From: a bacterium HR35
GTDB taxonomy: Bacteria > Patescibacteriota > Minisyncoccia > UBA6257 > HR35
Reading direction: 5' to 3'
Length of the DNA stretch: 64,000 nucleotides
NCBI GenBank assembly: GCA_002898235.1
Contig: BEIL01000003.1
Location: 2,264-66,263 of the forward strand
The first letter of the stretch is position 1, and each line of letters starts with the position of its first letter. The notes below the pieces were generated by a model. That model ran no database searches and was not told the origin of the DNA. It saw nothing but the letters and a program-made list of their open reading frames with translations. The translations under genes and the position numbers were made by a program. Below are positions 24,472 to 60,299 of this stretch, piece after piece.

Positions 24472-25536
24472 ATGAGTCAAACAATGGTTACTGAACAAAA
24501 TCAAGGATTAAAAGTGAAAGTTAAGAATATAACAATAGGTAGTATTTTGGAGGGAGTTGTTATCAGTAAGAAAAAGGGTGAGCTTTTTGTTGATTTGAGT
24601 CCTTTTGGAACAGGAAGGCTTTATGGGATTTTTTTCAAAGAGTGTGAGGATTTAGCAAAAAAAGTAAATGTTGGTGATAAAGTTGGAGTAAAGGTTGTTG
24701 GTTTAAATGATGGTTATGGAAATTTAGAAATTGTTCTTCAAGATACTTTTCAAATTAATCGCTGGCAAAAGATTTTGGAATATCAAAGAAATAAAACAGT
24801 TTTGGAATTGGAAATTAAAGAAGCTAATCGAGGTGGTTGGATTATTGAGCTTGAAGGCATTCAGGGTTTCATTCCTGTTTCTCAACTTTCGCCTGAATAT
24901 TATCCTCGAGTAAGTAATAATGATAAAGAGGCTATTTTAGAACATCTTAAAAAATTTGTTGGTCAAAAAATTAAATGCGTTGTTTGGTTAGCTGATCCTC
25001 AAAAAAACAAGTTAGTTCTTTCAGAAAAATTAACAAAAGCTGAAATTTATCAAAAGGTTTTAGAAAGTCTTCAGGTTGGTCAAATTTTAGATGTTAAAGT
25101 TGTTGGTATCAGTTCCTTTGGTGTTTTTGTTAGGTTTCATACTAACCCTGATATGGATGGTTTAATTCATATTATGGAAATTCCTCCAGAGTTAGCAAAT
25201 GACCTTCAAAAAAATTTTCCTTTAGGCAAAATCTTAAAAGCAAAAATTATTCAAATAAAACAAGATAGAGTTAATTTTTCTCTTAAAGATTTGAGGCCTG
25301 ATCCTTGGTTAATGGTTAAAGAATTTTATCGTGAAGGCTCTCAAGTCCAGGGGCTGGTTAAGGAAAAAAATAATATCTTTGGTGTAGCTGAAATTTCAGT
25401 AGGAGAGTATGGAAGTATTCAGGGTTATGTTTTTGAAGGAGTAGAAAAATTGGAGGTTAATAAGAGCTATAATTTTTTAATCGAAACTTTAAATCCCAAA
25501 GAAAAACATCTTGTTTTAAAACCGATTGATGCTTAG
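24472..25536 (+). CDS. rpsA: 30S ribosomal protein S1 (short form)
   Basis: S1 repeats: EANRGG..QGFIPVSQLSPEYYPRV; FGVFVRF..DGLIHIMEI. Confidence 0.88.
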   Translation: MSQTMVTEQNQGLKVKVKNITIGSILEGVVISKKKGELFVDLSPFGTGRLYGIFFKECEDLAKKVNVGDKVGVKVVGLNDGYGNLEIVLQDTFQINRWQKILEYQRNKTVLELEIKEANRGGWIIELEGIQGFIPVSQLSPEYYPRVSNNDKEAILEHLKKFVGQKIKCVVWLADPQKNKLVLSEKLTKAEIYQKVLESLQVGQILDVKVVGISSFGVFVRFHTNPDMDGLIHIMEIPPELANDLQKNFPLGKILKAKIIQIKQDRVNFSLKDLRPDPWLMVKEFYREGSQVQGLVKEKNNIFGVAEISVGEYGSIQGYVFEGVEKLEVNKSYNFLIETLNPKEKHLVLKPIDA

Positions 25537-28500
25537 AAATAATTATCTTAAATACTTTATTTTAGTTTTCTCTTTAATTCTTTTTTTCTCAATTTTATTT
25601 GTTGGTGAGAAAAAAATCAAAGAAGAGCAAAGCGTTTCTTTTCCTGTATTTTTAGAAAAGGTAAAAAATGGCGAAGTTAAAGAAATTAACTTAGAAAACG
25701 AAACTAATTTTACTTTTATTACTCAAGACAATAAAGTTTTTAATTCGAATAAGGATCCTAATGTTAGCTTTTGGGAAGTCTTCGAAAAAGAAAAAATACC
25801 TAAAGAAGTTTATCTGAAGATTAAAATTACTAAAAAAACAGAAGCTTCTTGGCTTCAACTTTTTCTTTCTTTTCTAATTAATGTTATTCCAATAATAATT
25901 ATTACTTGGTTTATTTGGCAGATTTTCAGACAGACGCAAAGAGGTACAAGTCAAATTTTTTCTTTTGGCAAATCAGGAATTAAAGTTTATAATCCCAATG
26001 ATCCAAATCGAATAACTTTTAAAGATGTAGCTGGCCTTGAAGAAGCTAAACAAGAACTTATGGAAGTTGTTGAATTTTTAAAAAATCCTGAAAAGTTTTT
26101 CAAAATTGGAGCTCGAATTCCTAAAGGAGTATTACTAGTGGGGCCGCCTGGAACCGGGAAAACAATGTTGGCTCAAGCAACAGCCTCGGAGGCTGGTGTT
26201 CCTTTCTTTTATATTTCTGGTTCTGAGTTTGTTGAAATGTTTGTCGGTGTTGGTGCTTCAGTAACTGGAGACACACCGATATTAATAAAAAGAGGAAACA
26301 AAATTAAGTTAACAACTATCGGTAAGTTTGTTGATAAATTTTATCAAGAAAATGAAAGTGGTTTTGTTAAATTTATAGACGGTTATGAAACTTTAGGTTA
26401 TGAACCACAAAGAAAAGTTTATTTTGGCAAGCCAATCTGGACAAATATTCGTGGCGTTTTTAGACATAAAGTCAATGAGATTTATGAAATTTATTTTAGA
26501 GGGGGGAAAATAAAAACAACTGGAGATCATAGCGTTTTTGTCAGAGAAAAAAATAGAATTATTCCTAAAAAAGTAAGTGAATTAAAAGTTGGTGATTGTT
26601 TAGTAAATTTACCATTTAAACGAAGAAGTGTTTTTGTTAAAGGAATAGGCACAACTCATAAGATTTCAACTTTTGATCTTGAAGAAAAAGAGATTTATTT
26701 AGATTTATATGAGAAAGAGTATAATAAAGCTTTGTTTAGTTACCAGTTTGCTTTAGAAAATAGAAATATTTTGAGTCAAGCGAAAATAGGAAAAATTTTA
26801 GGATTAGCGCAGACTACAATTAAAGATTGGCAATTAGGAAGGAGAAGGCCGAAAATATTTTCGAGCTTTAATATCTTTAGATTTAAAATCCCGCCTAAAA
26901 TAAAAGTGGATTTAGATTTGATGAAACTTCTTGGCTATTATGTTGCTGAAGGGAGAACAACAGATTATTTCACTCAATTTGTTTTTGGGATTCATGAAAG
27001 AGATTTGATTAAAGATTGTTCAAATTTAATTGAAAAGATTTTTAACATAACACCCCATATCAAAGATTGTCCTGAAACTAACTCCTGTCGAATTACTATT
27101 TACTCATCAATTATTAGCAAATTTTTTAAAAAGCACTGTGGTACTGGGGCCAAGAAAAAGCATATTCCTCCTTTCTTGTGGCAAATTCCCTTTCCTTATT
27201 TCAAATCATTTTTAGAAGGTCTTTACAGGGGTGATGGTTACATTACAAAAGAAGGAAAGTTAATTATTACCACAACTTCAAGAAGGTTAGCTTTAGAGCT
27301 TATTTGGCTTTCGGCTCTCCATGGAATTCAAGTTGGACTAAGAAAAACAAAATCGCCTGAAAGAAAAATAAGAGAGAAAATTCTTAAGCCATCTAAATAT
27401 TACCTAGTAATTTTTGGAAAGACATCTAATCCTTTTCTTAAAAATAAAAAGACTTCTCAACCTAAAAAACCAATAATAACAAAAATAATTAAAAAACCCT
27501 ATGATGGTTATGTTTATGACCTTTGTGGTTGTGATAATGAAGCATTTTTTGGAGGAGAAAAACCTATTTTACTTCATAACAGTCGCGTCCGTGATGCATT
27601 TTCTGTTGCTAAAAGAAATCAACCTTGTTTAACAGGTGATACAATTATTACTTTAAGCAATGGAGAAGAAATTACTATTAAAGAGATTTATGAGAAAAAA
27701 TTGATTGGCAAAGAGGTTTTAGCTTTTGATGAAAATCTTAATCTTAAAACCGCAAAAATAATTGGTGTTAGCAAAACACCCGATCAAGAAATATTAAAAA
27801 TATCTACAATCATCGACACCATAAAATTAACTCCCGATCATCTTTTACCTACTTTGAAAGATGGCAGGTTAGAATGGGTAGAAGCCAAAGAACTAAAAGA
27901 GGGAGATTTCATAGCTTATCCAAAGAAAATTCCTGAAGAATTTAGGATTCAATCAATAAGAACTCTAACTTTGATTCCTGAAGAAACAAGAATTTACTTC
28001 AAAAACAATTGTCTGCCTAAAATATATGGAAATAAAAAGTATTATCATTCAGTTAAATTAAAAGAAATATATTTAGATAAAATTGACGAAGAAAACATTG
28101 CTTGGATTGCTTTAGGCAAAGGTGGTTTTACTGATTCTTATCTCTACAGAATACCAAAATATTTGAATGAAGATATTCTTTATCTTAAAGGCTTAATAGA
28201 TGGTGATGGTTCTTATCATAAAAACAAATTCAATATTACTTTTGTTAATACTGAGTTGTATCTTCACCAAGAAGTTAAAAAGATTGTTTTAGATAATTTT
28301 GGAATTTCTGCGAAGACTTATAAAAACAAAAAATATTATCGCAATCTTCCTCAAGGGAAACCACCTCAAAATCTTAAAGATTGTTATACCACTCATATTA
28401 ATAACAAGTTAGTTAAAATCATCCTGAAAAACATTGATGAGATTCTTCTTTCTTTACCAAACAATCTTATAGCTGCTTGGATAAGGGGCATTTTTGATAG

Positions 28501-30151
28501 TGATGGTTATGTAGCCAGTATCAAAAATCATCCCAAGATTGTAATTACTTCTACTGACGAAACGTTGAACAAAAAAATTAGATCTGCTTTATTAAGATTA
28601 GGAATAATTGGCTATTGCACTGCTTCTAATAATTTTGGTAATATTGAAATTACAGGAAAGGAAAATATTAAACGTTTTAGAGAAATAGTTGGCTCTAATC
28701 ATCCTAAGAAATTGCAGAGATTAAAAAATTTAAATTTAGAAGGAGTAAGATTTTGGCGCTTAAATCAGATTCCATTAGGTTTGTTGCTTAAAGAAGCTAG
28801 GATTTCTTTAGGGATAGGGCAAAGGAGTTTTAAAAATGGGCATATGATTTCTTGTTGGGAAAGAAATATTCATTTACCATCTTTAGAGAATTTGGAAATA
28901 AAAGTTAAAGAAATGGAGAAAATAATTAGTGAAAAAAATTTATCTCCAACTCAAAGCTTTGAAAAATTAAAATCATTTGTCTACGGTGATGTAAGTTGGG
29001 TAAAAATTAAAAAAATTGAAAAAGTAAATCAAAAAGAAGACGTTTATGATCTTATTTTAGATAAATATCATAATTTCATTGCTAATAATCATTTTGTTCA
29101 TAATTGCATTTTGTTCATTGATGAGCTTGACGCTATTGGAAAAATAAGAGGAGCGGGAATTACTGGCGCTCATGAAGAAAGAGAGCAAACATTAAATCAA
29201 ATTTTAGTTGAAATGGATGGTTTTGAAAAAGGAACAAAAGTCGTTGTTTTAGCGGCGACAAATAGACCTGATGTTCTTGATCCAGCTCTTCTTCGTCCAG
29301 GAAGATTTGACCGCAAAATTGTTTTGGATTTGCCTGATATTAAAGCTAGAGAGGAAATTTTAAAAATTCATTTAAGAGATAAAAGAGTTGGTAAAGTTAA
29401 TTTAAGGCAAGTAGCTGAAAGAACTCCTGGTTTTTCTGGAGCTGATTTAGCTAATTTATGTAATGAAGCTGCAATTTTAGCAGCCAGAAGAAACAAAGAA
29501 TTTATCACTCAACAAGAACTTTTAGATTCAATTGAAAAAGTTTTATTAGGTCCAGAAAGAAAAACAAAAGCCTATTCAAAAAAAGAAAAAGAAATTGCTG
29601 CTTATCATGAAGCTGGCCATGCCATTGTTGCTCATTATTTGCCTTATACTAATCCAGTTCAAAAAATTTCAATTATTTCTCGCGGTCGAGCAGGTGGTTA
29701 TACTTTAAAAACACCCCTTGAAGACAGAAGCTTTTATTTTAAGAAAGAATTTTTAGATGAATTGGCTTCAATGCTTGGTGGTTATGCTGCTGAAAAATTA
29801 ATTTTTAACGATATTACTACTGGAGCCAGTAATGATTTAGAAATTGCTACTGATTTAACTAGACAATTAGTAACTAAATTTGGAATGTCAGAAAAACTTG
29901 GTCCAATTTCAATCTCCCAAAAACCAAAAGAATTTGTTTTAGAAAAAGAGTACTCTGAAAAAACAGCTGAACTTATCGATGAAGAAGTAAAAAATATTAT
30001 TCACCAAGCATTAGAAAGAGCAACAAAGGTTTTAGAAATTAAAAAAGATAAATTAGAAAAAGTTGCTCAAGTTTTAATCAAAAAAGAAGTGATTGAGAAA
30101 AAACAATTTGAGAGATTAGTTGGCGAGAAAAAAGGAAGTTTAAATATTTAA
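25529..30151 (+). CDS. ftsH: ATP-dependent zinc metalloprotease FtsH containing two inteins
   Basis: 2 TMs, GPPGTGKT, FVEMFVGVGA, ILFIDELD, ATNRPDVLDPALLRPGRFDR, HEAGH; about 606 aa remain after removing the two inteins. Confidence 0.97.
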   Translation: MLRNNYLKYFILVFSLILFFSILFVGEKKIKEEQSVSFPVFLEKVKNGEVKEINLENETNFTFITQDNKVFNSNKDPNVSFWEVFEKEKIPKEVYLKIKITKKTEASWLQLFLSFLINVIPIIIITWFIWQIFRQTQRGTSQIFSFGKSGIKVYNPNDPNRITFKDVAGLEEAKQELMEVVEFLKNPEKFFKIGARIPKGVLLVGPPGTGKTMLAQATASEAGVPFFYISGSEFVEMFVGVGASVTGDTPILIKRGNKIKLTTIGKFVDKFYQENESGFVKFIDGYETLGYEPQRKVYFGKPIWTNIRGVFRHKVNEIYEIYFRGGKIKTTGDHSVFVREKNRIIPKKVSELKVGDCLVNLPFKRRSVFVKGIGTTHKISTFDLEEKEIYLDLYEKEYNKALFSYQFALENRNILSQAKIGKILGLAQTTIKDWQLGRRRPKIFSSFNIFRFKIPPKIKVDLDLMKLLGYYVAEGRTTDYFTQFVFGIHERDLIKDCSNLIEKIFNITPHIKDCPETNSCRITIYSSIISKFFKKHCGTGAKKKHIPPFLWQIPFPYFKSFLEGLYRGDGYITKEGKLIITTTSRRLALELIWLSALHGIQVGLRKTKSPERKIREKILKPSKYYLVIFGKTSNPFLKNKKTSQPKKPIITKIIKKPYDGYVYDLCGCDNEAFFGGEKPILLHNSRVRDAFSVAKRNQPCLTGDTIITLSNGEEITIKEIYEKKLIGKEVLAFDENLNLKTAKIIGVSKTPDQEILKISTIIDTIKLTPDHLLPTLKDGRLEWVEAKELKEGDFIAYPKKIPEEFRIQSIRTLTLIPEETRIYFKNNCLPKIYGNKKYYHSVKLKEIYLDKIDEENIAWIALGKGGFTDSYLYRIPKYLNEDILYLKGLIDGDGSYHKNKFNITFVNTELYLHQEVKKIVLDNFGISAKTYKNKKYYRNLPQGKPPQNLKDCYTTHINNKLVKIILKNIDEILLSLPNNLIAAWIRGIFDSDGYVASIKNHPKIVITSTDETLNKKIRSALLRLGIIGYCTASNNFGNIEITGKENIKRFREIVGSNHPKKLQRLKNLNLEGVRFWRLNQIPLGLLLKEARISLGIGQRSFKNGHMISCWERNIHLPSLENLEIKVKEMEKIISEKNLSPTQSFEKLKSFVYGDVSWVKIKKIEKVNQKEDVYDLILDKYHNFIANNHFVHNCILFIDELDAIGKIRGAGITGAHEEREQTLNQILVEMDGFEKGTKVVVLAATNRPDVLDPALLRPGRFDRKIVLDLPDIKAREEILKIHLRDKRVGKVNLRQVAERTPGFSGADLANLCNEAAILAARRNKEFITQQELLDSIEKVLLGPERKTKAYSKKEKEIAAYHEAGHAIVAHYLPYTNPVQKISIISRGRAGGYTLKTPLEDRSFYFKKEFLDELASMLGGYAAEKLIFNDITTGASNDLEIATDLTRQLVTKFGMSEKLGPISISQKPKEFVLEKEYSEKTAELIDEEVKNIIHQALERATKVLEIKKDKLEKVAQVLIKKEVIEKKQFERLVGEKKGSLNI
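26258..27580 (+). mobile_element. Intein 1 in FtsH (441 aa; LAGLIDADG homing endonuclease + HTH)
   Basis: Begins SVTGDT after FVGVGA; block B TTGDHSVF; LGYYVAEG and LEGLYRGDG; ends ILLHN|S. Confidence 0.93.
27626..29104 (+). mobile_element. Intein 2 in FtsH (493 aa; LAGLIDADG homing endonuclease + HTH)
   Basis: Begins CLTGDT after RNQP; LTPDHLL; KGLIDGDG and RGIFDSDG; ends VYDL..HNFIANNHFVHN|C, immediately before Walker B. Confidence 0.95.
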
Positions 30152-30155
30152 AAAA

Positions 30156-31256
30156 TTAAGGACCAAGATTTAGACAAACATATCTAATTGGGCCAGTAGT
30201 TGAACAAGTGCTACCAAAAGAACATTTTTCCGTACCGCTTACTCCTCCAGGATCATAAGCTTTAACACAAATCTCTTTTGCTCCTGTTGTATAATTTCCA
30301 TTTATTACCCTACTATTTAAATCAATTGAAGCTATTTTTCCGCTTACATACATATCTCCATTAACATATAGTCTAAATGGATCTGGATTTGTTATTCCGA
30401 TGCCTATGTTACCATTATTTCCTTTAACTGTAAAAACTTCGCTGCCACGGTCATTAGTTACTCTAAATCTTGAATCTTGACCGGTATCTATTCTAATGGT
30501 GGTAATTGCATTCCAATCCCCTACTTCTTCATTGCCAATTATAAATTCATTTGTATCTACATAAATGTATTTATTAAAAGCATCTAAGAAATTTATCTTT
30601 TTTCCGGAATTACCAGAAAAACACAACATATACGGATCATAATTACAATAATAAATATCATCGCCTATTCCTATAGTTCCTATTACTTGTAATTTCTTCT
30701 GAGGGTTCATTGTTCCAATGCCAATATTTCCATTATTTAAAATTGTCATTAAATGCTTTACATCATCGCCTCCAGGTGGATCTGGATCATTAACAAATGA
30801 TGTTTTTCCATAAGAAGGAGCAGTATTTGTAATCCAAAATAATCCATCATATCCACCATCAAACCACATATCTCTTGAAAAATCACCAAATCCTATTTTC
30901 CCAACTGCTTCATTATCGCTAACAATTTCAAATTTTGTTCGCGGATAAAGAGTTCCTACTCCAACATTGCCTCCGTAAGGATTAAGAGATAAATTATATG
31001 GTTTGCCGGTTTCATCTTTGCTCTGAATAATACCATAGTCAGCGTAATTTGATAATAATTTATTATCCTCAGAAATTGGTTCGTTAGGAGTAAGATAGAT
31101 ATTTTGATTTAATTTAAGATTATCATCTGACGATATTTTTGTTCTTTTGCCTATAAAGTAATTTTTAAAGGAATCAAAAGAAGGTCTATTAAAATAATAA
31201 AAATAAACGAAAATAAAAATAAGCCCTCCTAAAAAAATCAAATATTCTTTTTTCAT
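30156..31256 (-). CDS. Membrane-anchored fibre/adhesin-like protein with GNxGIGT repeats and Cys-rich C-terminus
   Basis: N-terminal TM; GNVGVGT, GNIGIGT, GNIGIGIT repeats; four Cys in the last ~40 aa. Confidence 0.65.
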   Translation of the reverse strand: MKKEYLIFLGGLIFIFVYFYYFNRPSFDSFKNYFIGKRTKISSDDNLKLNQNIYLTPNEPISEDNKLLSNYADYGIIQSKDETGKPYNLSLNPYGGNVGVGTLYPRTKFEIVSDNEAVGKIGFGDFSRDMWFDGGYDGLFWITNTAPSYGKTSFVNDPDPPGGDDVKHLMTILNNGNIGIGTMNPQKKLQVIGTIGIGDDIYYCNYDPYMLCFSGNSGKKINFLDAFNKYIYVDTNEFIIGNEEVGDWNAITTIRIDTGQDSRFRVTNDRGSEVFTVKGNNGNIGIGITNPDPFRLYVNGDMYVSGKIASIDLNSRVINGNYTTGAKEICVKAYDPGGVSGTEKCSFGSTCSTTGPIRYVCLNLGP

Positions 31257-31291: not shown

Positions 31292-32614
31292 CTAGTACAA
31301 ATCTGGCCAGCAAATCCCTAAATTTGTTGAAGGAATAACTTGTCTAGAAATTCCGGGTCCGCTCCATTCAAGAAGCAATCTCTCACCACCTGCATTCTCA
31401 TAATGGTCTATTCTTAATGGATACCAACCGGGAGAAGAAAAGGTATAATTAGCAGAATACGTGGTAGCGCCTTGATCTCTCCATTGATCCACTAAGATTT
31501 GCCAGTTAACCCACAACCTAACACCATCATCGCTAGTTACATAAAAAGTATAGGTTCCTGCAACTGGTATATAAACACAACCATAAACTCTAAGCGACCA
31601 ACCATCAGCTTTTCCAAGGGGATTAAGATCAGTAAAATCTATAGTTGGTTTTACTATTCTCATAATTTTATCTTTAAACGAAAGATATGGATTTGGATCA
31701 TAGCTCCCAAAACCTTCAACAATAATTCCTCCTTTTTGCACTATTCTTCTCGGAGGCCATCCTGGAGAATCTAAAAAAACAGCATCAACTAAATTTCCTT
31801 CATAAATTGTTAATTTAGTAGTCGGTGTCGTCGTCCCGATGCCGATATTATTATTAACATCGATTACTATTGCAGGATTATTAAAATTTCTCGTAAAATC
31901 ACGTGCTATTTTGAATTTGTCTCCATCGGCGTTATCTATTCCCATTATCCAATCTCTTACTCCTGGAATAGCAAAATGAAGCATAGGATTAGCGGTTGCT
32001 CCGCCCCAAGCAGTAGAAATAGCTATTCTAACATCAGCCGAAGGTCCAGTATTATCGTTCCTTATTAAAAGTTGCAATTCTGAGTTAGAATTTGAAGCTA
32101 TATGAACTTTTTGTTCTGGTGTCGTCGTCCCGATGCCGACGTTGCCAGGAAAACTATAATTTCCTCCACCTGTGTTTGCTCCAAATTGGCCTGAAGAAAC
32201 ATTAGCTGCATTGATTGTTCCTAAAAAAGTATCAGCTTTAACATTACCAGCAACATGTAAAGTTGTTGTAGGTGTTGTTGTTCCAATTCCTAATCTTTTG
32301 TTTGTATTGTCCCAAAAGAGATTGTTGTCACCAGAAATAGTTGATGCTCCTGTCCAAAATGCTACTTGACCAGCTGAACCCGAGCCGCCTATTCCTAAGC
32401 TACCAGTATATCTTACTAAAACATTTTGGGTTGAGGAGGTCATTACTAAATAACCAGCTCCAGGCCAAGTTGTTTCTCCCCAATTAAGATAAGGTAATGG
32501 CTGGCAGTAAGCACCTTGTCCTAAAGATTCTTTGGGTAAAAAAAAGTAAAAAATAATGTTGGTTAAAGCAAATAAAAGCGAAAGAGCAAGAGATATTATT
32601 AACCCCTTTTTCAT
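31292..32614 (-). CDS. Secreted fibre/adhesin-like protein with GIGTTTP repeats and C-terminal PA14 domain
   Basis: NNLFWDNTNKRLGIGTTTP and two more GIGTTTP; PA14 signature GTYTFYVTSDDGVRLWVN..YPLRIDHYENAGGERLLLEWSGPG..QVIP. Confidence 0.8.
   Translation of the reverse strand: MKKGLIISLALSLLFALTNIIFYFFLPKESLGQGAYCQPLPYLNWGETTWPGAGYLVMTSSTQNVLVRYTGSLGIGGSGSAGQVAFWTGASTISGDNNLFWDNTNKRLGIGTTTPTTTLHVAGNVKADTFLGTINAANVSSGQFGANTGGGNYSFPGNVGIGTTTPEQKVHIASNSNSELQLLIRNDNTGPSADVRIAISTAWGGATANPMLHFAIPGVRDWIMGIDNADGDKFKIARDFTRNFNNPAIVIDVNNNIGIGTTTPTTKLTIYEGNLVDAVFLDSPGWPPRRIVQKGGIIVEGFGSYDPNPYLSFKDKIMRIVKPTIDFTDLNPLGKADGWSLRVYGCVYIPVAGTYTFYVTSDDGVRLWVNWQILVDQWRDQGATTYSANYTFSSPGWYPLRIDHYENAGGERLLLEWSGPGISRQVIPSTNLGICWPDLY
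31824..31845. repeat. 22-bp GC-rich direct repeat, copy 1
   Basis: ggtgtcgtcgtcccgatgccga, identical to 32118-32139. Confidence 0.95.
32118..32139. repeat. 22-bp GC-rich direct repeat, copy 2
   Basis: ggtgtcgtcgtcccgatgccga, 294 bp (98 codons) from copy 1. Confidence 0.95.
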
Positions 32615-33078
32615 TTTGTTATTATTATATAACCTAACAATTTATTTTTGCAATTGTTACAAATAATTTTAAAGCTACCTTCTTCTAAAGCTTGAAATTG
32701 AATTGTTTTTGTTTCTTCCTTTTTTATTTTGCTAGAAAGATTATAATTTTCTATAAAAATTTCGTAATTTTTATCTTTAGCTGTTAAATTTAAAGTAAGT
32801 ACATCATTTAAAGAAGCTTTTATCGTGTTTTTTTCTCCTAGACTTTCGTTTTCTAAATCTAAATTAAAATTTTGATAATTTGTTTCATTTATTTTAACGC
32901 TGCTTGATGGTTGAACGATTTTAGTTTCTTCTACTTTGATTGTTTCTTTAGAAGAAGTTTTAACTTTTTGAGGTAATTTAAAAGAAATTATAGAAAAAAT
33001 ATCAAAGTAAAAAACAAGTACAAAAATTAAAACAACAATTATGATTCCAACTAAAAAAATTAAATATTCTCTTTTCAT
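32611..33078 (-). CDS. Membrane-anchored cupredoxin-like domain protein
   Basis: N-terminal TM; IKASLNDVLTLNLTA..ETKTIQFQALEEGSFKIICNNC..GYIII fits an EfeO/cupredoxin-type fold. Confidence 0.65.
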   Translation of the reverse strand: MKREYLIFLVGIIIVVLIFVLVFYFDIFSIISFKLPQKVKTSSKETIKVEETKIVQPSSSVKINETNYQNFNLDLENESLGEKNTIKASLNDVLTLNLTAKDKNYEIFIENYNLSSKIKKEETKTIQFQALEEGSFKIICNNCKNKLLGYIIITK

Positions 33079-59303: not shown

Positions 59304-60299
59304 TTAAGTCTCTTTTACTTTTTCTAAAATTTGTTTAAATATCCTTTGTTTTAATTCTTTATTTTCTTTTAGATTTTCTCTGGCTGCTTGGTAACTTGAA
59401 CCTAACTTTGTTTCCTCAAAATAAAAAGAATTGCCTTCTTTTTTAATTACACCGTATTTTAAACCTAAATTAAGAAGATCAGCTTCATAAGAAATTCCTT
59501 CATTATAGTAAATTTCAATTTCAGCAGTCTTAAAAGGTGGAGCAACCTTATTTTTAACAATTCGAGCTTTAACTTTTACTCCGATTACTTCATCACCTCT
59601 TTCAATTTGACCAACTTTTTTAAGCTCAATTCTTACTGAGGCATAAAATTTTAAAGCTTTACCACCAGTTGTTGTTTCTTGACCAGGAACTAAACCGCCT
59701 ATCATTGCTCTTGTTTGATTAATAAAAATCAAAACTGTTCTCGTTTTCGAAATAAGACCTGTCAGTTTTCTTAAAGCTTGAGACATAAGTCTTGCTTGAA
59801 GACCAATATATTGATCACCAATTTCTCCTTCAAGTTCAGCTCGGGGAACTAAAGCAGCAACCGAATCAACGATAATCACATCAAAAATTCCAGCTTTAGT
59901 TAATTTTTCAACAATATTTAAAGCATCTTCGCCGCTATCTGGCTGAGATAAAACTAATTTATCGACATTAACTCCCAATCTCTTAGCGTAATCAGGGTCT
60001 AAAGCATGTTCAGTATCGATAAAAGCAACATTGCCGCCTTCTTTTTGAGCTTGAGCAGCTACTGAAAGGGCAATAGTTGTTTTACCTGAAGATTCTGGAC
60101 CATAAATTTCAATTATTCTACCTCTAGGTAATCCGCCTATTCCTAAAGCTAAATCAAGTGAAGGAGAACCAGTAGAAATAACTTCAACATCTACTTTAGG
60201 TGCCTCTTCTAAGGTCATAATACTCCCTTCACCAAATTCTTTTTTTATTTCTTCCAATAATTTTTTAATTTCACTTTTTTCTTCTTTTTGTTTTTTCAT
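59304..60299 (-). CDS. recA: Recombinase RecA
   Basis: GPESSGKTT, DSVAALVPRAE, QARLMSQALRKL, GGKALKFYASVR. Confidence 0.99.
   Translation of the reverse strand: MKKQKEEKSEIKKLLEEIKKEFGEGSIMTLEEAPKVDVEVISTGSPSLDLALGIGGLPRGRIIEIYGPESSGKTTIALSVAAQAQKEGGNVAFIDTEHALDPDYAKRLGVNVDKLVLSQPDSGEDALNIVEKLTKAGIFDVIIVDSVAALVPRAELEGEIGDQYIGLQARLMSQALRKLTGLISKTRTVLIFINQTRAMIGGLVPGQETTTGGKALKFYASVRIELKKVGQIERGDEVIGVKVKARIVKNKVAPPFKTAEIEIYYNEGISYEADLLNLGLKYGVIKKEGNSFYFEETKLGSSYQAARENLKENKELKQRIFKQILEKVKET

Follow-up and report, generated by a model that had tools for sequence, protein, structure and literature searches.

The fibre locus

The window, by which we mean the whole analysed stretch of 64,000 nucleotides, carries two neighbouring minus-strand genes for candidate fibre proteins, fibre genes A and B. 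In relatives, the fibre gene lies between ftsH and a cupredoxin-like gene. The features of the locus are listed here by position, strand and description.

31292..32614, minus strand: fibre gene A, 440 aa, with a hydrophobic N-terminus and modules of 108/51/98/183 aa; MAT-like (Bd2133, PDB 8OND, E 5.7e-4)
32276..32299, minus strand: site 1 (KRLGIGTT), within the constant N-terminal part; ordinary codons, 0/5 canonical
32123..32146, minus strand: junction word at site 2 of fibre gene A (GNVGIGTT), complete; 8/8 codons canonical
31853..32146, minus strand: exchangeable unit of 294 bp, the word plus the 98-aa fibre module; module codons host-like, GC3 0.19
31829..31852, minus strand: second word, site 3 (NNIGIGTT); 5/6 comparable codons canonical, the 5' part non-canonical and the 3' 17 nt canonical
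31292..31843, minus strand: 183-aa tip module with a PA14 domain (PF07691, E 2.7e-16, residues 304-430)
30156..31256, minus strand: fibre gene B (366 aa); its junctions are degenerate and its tip is of the 82-aa type
30708..30731, minus strand: second degenerate junction of gene B (GNIGIGTM); 1/6 codons canonical
30390..30413, minus strand: degenerate word of gene B (GNIGIGIT), containing a partial GGCATCGG; 3/6 codons canonical
59490..60269, minus strand: recA, candidate catalyst, not adjacent (PF00154, E 6.3e-122, at C3:61753-62532)

At site 2 the constant N-terminal part gives way to the variable modules, and near-identical strains part exactly there. At site 3 the 98-aa module meets the PA14 tip. 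The third GIGTTTP peptide of the protein (32270-32290), that of site 1, is spelled with ordinary codons, just as the first-pass annotation had it; site 1 is also non-canonical in the orthologues displayed and is likely an inactive junction. The partial GGCATCGG that the same annotation had placed in the neighbouring gene (30397-30404) does sit at a gene B junction. The 82-aa tip type of gene B is also found behind gene-A-type N-termini elsewhere. The PA14 tip of gene A matches PDB entries 6QE7, 6QDI and 6M8M and is predicted to bind carbohydrate.

Judging by sequence, the fibre proteins resemble the mosaic adhesive trimer (MAT) fibres of Bdellovibrio bacteriovorus, with matches to PDB entries 8OND, 8OJN, 8OL4 and 8ON4 (PMC10769870). 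A 998-aa paralogue matches 8OJN with E 1.5e-6 and 8OND with E 1.4e-4, and S74 is found in both C1 paralogues while PA14 is found in gene A, whose MAT matches do not cover the hydrophobic N-terminus. According to the accessible portion of the MAT paper, the GNVGIGTTxP..L peptide found here is the capping-loop consensus of those fibres, which likewise bear S74 and non-S74 tips that have been exchanged in evolution; that portion treats the capping loop as a protein feature and does not describe a DNA word, which sets our case apart (PMC10769870).

Other features of the surrounding genes are recorded here as observations in their own right. Gene B (31212-31256) and the cupredoxin-like gene (33034-33078) have a common 45-nt start, 78% identical (MKKEYLIFL and MKREYLIFL), and since gene B is absent at this locus in genomes G001, G002 and G003, its head may derive from a duplication. 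FtsH (25526-30151, plus strand, 1541 aa) contains two inteins with LAGLIDADG domains, and its G003 orthologue is 819 aa long. An ORF just beyond the window (G000:C3:1492-2590) has strongly atypical codon use.

A 24-nt word at the module joints

In fibre gene A (ORF 31292-32614), a 22-bp sequence is directly repeated without mismatch at 31824-31845 and 32118-32139, in frame on the minus strand, 294 bp apart and with a G+C content of 15/22, all as first annotated. The DNA flanking the two copies had been called unrelated, and it is, with identities of 23% upstream and 27% downstream. What did not stand was the 22-mer as the unit: its ACACC tail is not conserved elsewhere, and the conserved unit is a 24-nt word ending in ACG ACG (GGC AAC GTC GGC ATC GGG ACG ACG, encoding GNVGIGTT), with copies at 32123-32146 and 31829-31852. 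The word contains a small dyad (CGTCG-9-CGACG), and its computed melting temperature is 69.6 C in the canonical spelling versus 54.9 C in an AT-rich spelling.

The genome itself is 596 kb long, 28-29% GC and scored at a completeness of 100. It holds 14 motifs of the form G[IVL]G[TIVA]..P spread over four genes, and the core of the word is found at 8 of the 14, in three genes on two contigs, always in intact ORFs; the other 6/14 are degenerate copies, which are thus frequent. Of the 96 codons that can be compared across the 14 motifs, 61 are canonical versus 8.8 expected. The word was said to use codons that this AT-rich genome otherwise avoids, and its codons are indeed among the rarest of the genome (ACG 0.037, GGG 0.061, GTC 0.065), such that the full eight-codon spelling has a probability of 1.6e-9 given the codon use of the genome's 439 ORFs.

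The 17-nt core, searched with one mismatch permitted, was present in 17/61 genomes searched as relatives (our own genome counted) at 1-15 copies each, while a reversed control pattern gave one match. Scanning species genomes for the DNA word returned at least 128 stretches, many of which are chance matches in GC-rich genomes; the remainder, among the matches listed, are GNVGIGTT junctions, found in Patescibacteria and here and there in other groups. The same scan of viral contigs returned at least 129 stretches. Cultured phage genomes (50,697 records) gave 6 weak matches, none spanning 80% of the 51-nt query.

Sampling that is independent of the spelling used a search with the back-translated peptide, which matched 62/151 genomes of the class. 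At least 7/8 codons were canonical at 22/50 sites of a peptide-found sample of the genome's class (30 loci) and at 16/32 sites of the best 25 of 67 protein-found metagenome loci. The genes of these loci have GC3 under 0.3, and GGG and ACG are over-used relative even to genes of GC3 0.45-0.6 (0.64 vs 0.14 and 0.71 vs 0.25). The same spelling is seen in genes of GC3 under 0.3 and above 0.45, and two expectations are borne out: the word is conserved as DNA whatever the GC of the gene, and it recurs at the GNVGIGTT junctions of other Patescibacteria. A spelling universal to the peptide was rejected, the near-canonical form being found at 16/247 viral sites (152 loci), at 1/18 Bacteroidota sites and at 0/8 sites in six further genomes of a DPANN class sample (n=61). 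Single Elusimicrobia and Bacteroidia assemblies and two DPANN assemblies, all selected by the word and possibly mis-binned, use it at most junctions. Across the searched sequences, the spelling is centred on Patescibacteria and sporadic in other groups.

Some sequences stand out within these collections. One region (G135:C4:82783-92255) has 23 junctions within less than 10 kb, nearly all canonical. A second junction spelling, rich in G and with the 3' GGGACGAC in common, was seen in 45 viral stretches (L587-L631) of 41-63% GC.

Conservation at silent sites was measured on 110 pairs of junctions with unrelated flanks in 36 ORFs of relatives, 3 pairs having been removed for similar flanks. Synonymous identity between junctions of one gene was 0.70 inside the word versus 0.39 expected, whereas the equally conserved Pro10 (0.24 vs 0.36 expected) and Leu14 (0.28 vs 0.28) were at background. 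Because conservation drops to background at Pro10 and Leu14, what is conserved is the block of eight fixed residues, and it reaches codon 9 where residue 9 agrees. Where phage and metagenome genes lack the canonical spelling, they homogenise spellings of their own (0.69 vs 0.41; 32/32 ORFs, 131 pairs), and in AT-rich phages the junction words are AT-rich. A test for block structure among the sites gave 496 transitions versus 570 +/- 13, a difference confounded by shared ancestry. Literature searches, with most subscription papers outside their coverage, found no description of the DNA word.

Alleles that differ in modules and tips

In-frame gain, loss and replacement of modules and tips at the word had been proposed from the window sequence, and alleles from other strains agree with the proposal. 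The 294-bp unit is missing exactly in G003, where at the same locus the N-terminal part joins PA14 directly, without the 98-aa module (read over two overlapping contig ends). Other modules take its place in G001, G002 and L348-L369: at the same locus, G001 has modules of 84/91/160/137 aa with S74 at the end, and G002 has a degenerate site followed by a 499-aa tip with DUF2341. The clearest series is formed by L367, L349 and L351, which differ at 3-6 positions per 489 nt until the end of the word and are 25-33% identical beyond it, and in which a PA14 tip (91-96% identical) is preceded by no module, one module (103 aa) and two modules (73+65), respectively. Protein P0006 has three modules (73+103+65) before the PA14 tip, so that alleles with 0, 1, 2 or 3 modules are found. 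The pair L353 and L354 shows the same pattern, with 2/516 differences up to the word. Natural alleles with homology ending at the motif, the mark of a conserved-motif hotspot, exist.

Tips are exchanged as well. The gene A N-terminal family carries PA14, DUF2341, S74, Kelch, H-lectin, DUF1554 or glycine-rich tips. In protein P0002, the gene A N-terminus and a 98-aa module (77% identical) are joined at site 3 to a gene-B-type tip. As L350 also has this tip, there after a canonical core, we regard it as a mobile module, and P0002 is not necessarily a two-site deletion of the window sequence.

Swaps are also seen at degenerate words and outside the word. L348 and G001 are 96.9% identical across 352 nt in the region of an 84-aa module, although their N-termini cannot be aligned, and the left edge of the exchange lies ~75 nt upstream of a degenerate site, inside a conserved stretch. 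G001 further contains a word-bounded tandem duplication of 243 nt with 4 differing positions, 3 of them inside the word. Within this duplication (L177:1925-4666), the middle word is canonical and both outer words carry the identical two deviations. This pattern fits unequal exchange with another strain's DNA.

Three sequencing runs were available as contigs, and only X1, a hot-spring metagenome, contains the locus. The first-pass annotation had suggested looking in reads for loss of the 294 bp or for 294-bp circles; no in-register deletion joint was seen in the contigs of X1, a form in which rare variants are dropped, and a strain 98-99% identical retains the module. Two joints of low support in X1 (31850-32124 and 32148-32270, with sides of 22 and 26 nt) were not counted. 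A depth spike at 31972-32188 (618 versus 20-47 alongside) reflects only the sharing of the word, because many contigs carry it.

Other loci show further structure. Two tandem S74-type tail modules are present in L172:3386-5209 (G001) and in L353:320-1846, with a canonical word between them in G001. A region of ~19 kb period is apparently duplicated in L182 and L183 (G004:C3), with fibre sites and a resolvase in each copy, possibly as an assembly effect or a tandem duplication. In L363, L364, L365 and L369, small flanking genes resemble toxin-antitoxin pairs by eye.

Probable homologous exchange and its alternatives

The 24-nt repeat word is real and is a DNA-level junction word where fibre modules exchange. 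As to how they do so, we favour, at a probability of roughly 60%, the reading that the word is a short DNA homology shared by the joints of fibre genes, within which homology-directed recombination crosses over, with no dedicated recombinase. Homology is favoured over recognition of a site because the mapped crossovers are better described by a spread than by one cut, the exchange between L348 and G001 starts outside a site, and other spellings are homogenised too. The spread was assessed on pairs of sites with one common flank, for which 1301 sites gave 19 upstream-sharing and 18 downstream-sharing clusters. By a crude cluster count, a cut zone of 8 nt at positions 1-10 gave 6 violations versus 5.1 expected, a result compatible with such a zone. 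Likelihood mapping took one pair per cluster against a measured background of 0.016-0.031. Over the 37 pairs, a uniform crossover led the best single cut by 31.6 log-likelihood units at a background of 0.02 and by 20.1 at 0.04, and its lead over the best four-codon window was 18.1 and 11.5, respectively. With the 8/37 non-canonical pairs removed, the leads of the uniform model over the 29 canonical pairs were 7.4 over the single cut and 3.1 over the window at a background of 0.03, and at 0.07 its lead over the four-codon window was just 0.3. A single fixed cut is disfavoured, and a 5' or central cut zone is excluded weakly at best.

Under homology-driven exchange, GNVGIGTT would be the longest protein-fixed stretch between otherwise unrelated modules and hence the only place where two modules could pair. 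Each exchange would copy the word, and modules with the commonest spelling would have the most partners, such that partner frequency, favouring the commonest and most stable spelling, would hold one GC-rich word against AT drift. The pool of modules may span Patescibacteria and co-occurring viruses. Natural competence or phages would bring in the donor DNA, RecA/DprA or a phage annealase would carry out the pairing, and the result would be a trimeric adhesin of variable length with an exchangeable binding tip. The genome encodes RecA, ComEC and DprA, and natural competence has been shown in Saccharibacteria, according to the available part of one report (PMC10633639). Minimal homology is given as 31-34 bp for RecA and 23-27 bp for Red-beta in the accessible text of another (PMC3945230); the 24-nt word is below the first and equal to the second, which makes the Rad52-like phage annealases, for which that text has short diverged homology suffice, a close parallel in this respect. 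Against a phage-type annealase from the genome itself, no member of the RecT, ERF and Rad52 families was found among its genes, and a phage would have to supply one. An AAA_24 match considered as a Sak4-type recombinase turned out to be RecA itself.

We think it unlikely that the word is instead the site of a sequence-specific recombinase or a recombination-stimulating protein, which would act on the direct repeats in trans and insert and excise modules in integron-like fashion. Such a site would account for one spelling in distant genomes, including the Elusimicrobia, Bacteroidia and two DPANN assemblies, and for segments that are always direct and in frame; the word also has its dyad and a modest single-stranded DNA fold (z -1.0 to -2.8), and the weakness with which a central or 5' cut zone is excluded leaves such a site some room. 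Only a stem of 5 bp is common to the two copies, which fold differently, and the word has no Rfam match. The recombinases themselves do not track the word, contrary to what a co-distributed enzyme would show. Serine recombinases are found in 5/16 word-positive and 13/44 word-negative relatives, and tyrosine recombinases in 59/61 genomes, mostly as one copy whether or not the word is present; the only one of our genome is a 298-aa Xer-like protein adjoining rpsO. Integrase-like genes lie near the word gene at only 4/77 viral loci, where the recurrent neighbours are otherwise tail-fibre, tail-assembly, virion or unassigned proteins. The genome has no matches to IS110, reverse transcriptase (PF00078), RecT, ERF or Rad52, and neither an attI site nor an IntI integrase was found in it. 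Were a recombinase site nevertheless the answer, the word would be a community-wide connector standard, a 24-nt site read by a putative trans-acting recombination factor, through which Patescibacteria, some archaea and their viruses would plug modules of a common library into host-binding fibres without an adjoining recombinase gene; this, too, we hold to be doubtful.

Separately from the question of the word, a large serine recombinase region (G000:C1:184509-186630) adjoins tRNA-Asn, is apparently split into frames of 391 and 160 aa with a small gene upstream, and is probably the remnant of an integrated element.

The proposal of a programmed, shufflon- or integron-like system is not supported. 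In shufflons and tail-fibre invertase systems (Rci, Min, Gin, Cin), C-terminal parts of adhesins are exchanged at short repeated sites. In contrast, the present system is without inverted sites, silent cassettes or a linked recombinase: both orientations of the word core occurred in 0/115 loci with two or more cores (loci partly overlapping), and no silent start-less cassettes were found, word-to-word segments of <1500 nt being open and in frame in 147/150 cases. Because only one orientation occurs and the segments are open and in frame, these are direct repeats within expressed genes and not inversion cassettes. The better fit of spread crossovers than of one cut, the swaps that involve degenerate words or DNA outside the word, and the homogenisation of other spellings by phages likewise speak against the proposal. 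An integron differs further in that the tyrosine recombinase here is Xer-like and present as a single copy in relatives, whether these have the word or not, and a diversity-generating retroelement differs in that the genome has no PF00078 match and variation here is by whole modules.

It is improbable that the word is a passive relic of GC-rich donors that has not yet drifted, with shuffling at structural repeats incidental. Several of its codons are ordinary in GC-rich genes, and degenerate copies are common. The modules between the words, however, have GC3 of 0.05-0.27 per module versus 0.16 for the genome, and GC-rich import is dismissed because these modules carry host-like codons; the word alone is GC-rich. 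Together with the background-level codons of the conserved Pro and Leu, two to six positions away, the host-like modules largely refute this reading. The over-use of GGG and ACG beyond genes of GC3 0.45-0.6 runs against it as well.

A little lower still we place a role in RNA or translation, in which a rare-codon pause or a hairpin would pace the co-translational folding of trimer modules and recombination would be a by-product. The rarity of its codons in this genome and their position at structural module borders would suit such a role. Yet the same spelling is found where GC3 exceeds 0.45, in genes for which few of these codons count as rare; any rare codons would do; AT-rich phages have AT-rich words; and, besides the missing Rfam match, Bacteroidota junctions are free in their codons. 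A Chi-like or DNA-uptake role of the word is scarcely credible in spite of the RecA and competence genes, as with junctions masked no 5- to 8-mer of the word is clearly over-represented (GGGACGAC was seen once versus 1.1 expected), which refutes a genome-wide signal.

Homology-driven exchange has its nearest counterparts in phage fibres. Conserved motifs in the adhesins of T-even tail fibres are reportedly points of recombination that swap specificity (Tetart, Desplats and Krisch 1998), and short conserved fibre-gene motifs would thus serve as crossover points in both cases. Here, by difference, there is a single GC-rich spelling whose silent sites are kept against genome bias, it stands at most module joints of cellular genes, and it spans some viruses and, within one bacterial class, many families. 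Motifs of 20-95 nt near receptor-binding domains of E. coli phages are likewise proposed, in the available part of their description, as recombination hotspots exchanging domains across genera, and are given there as 63-81% identical and flanking one domain (PMC10408124); the word here is near-exact, repeated within genes, and alters both fibre length and tip.

Many words lie no more than a few hundred bases from the end of a contig, and for that reason fibre genes with the word are probably under-assembled. The word allows modules to be excised and catalogued from any assembly, and it is a clear case of silent-site DNA kept for exchange and not for expression. It also bears on how Patescibacteria find and switch hosts, marking the sites at which their candidate adhesins are rebuilt.
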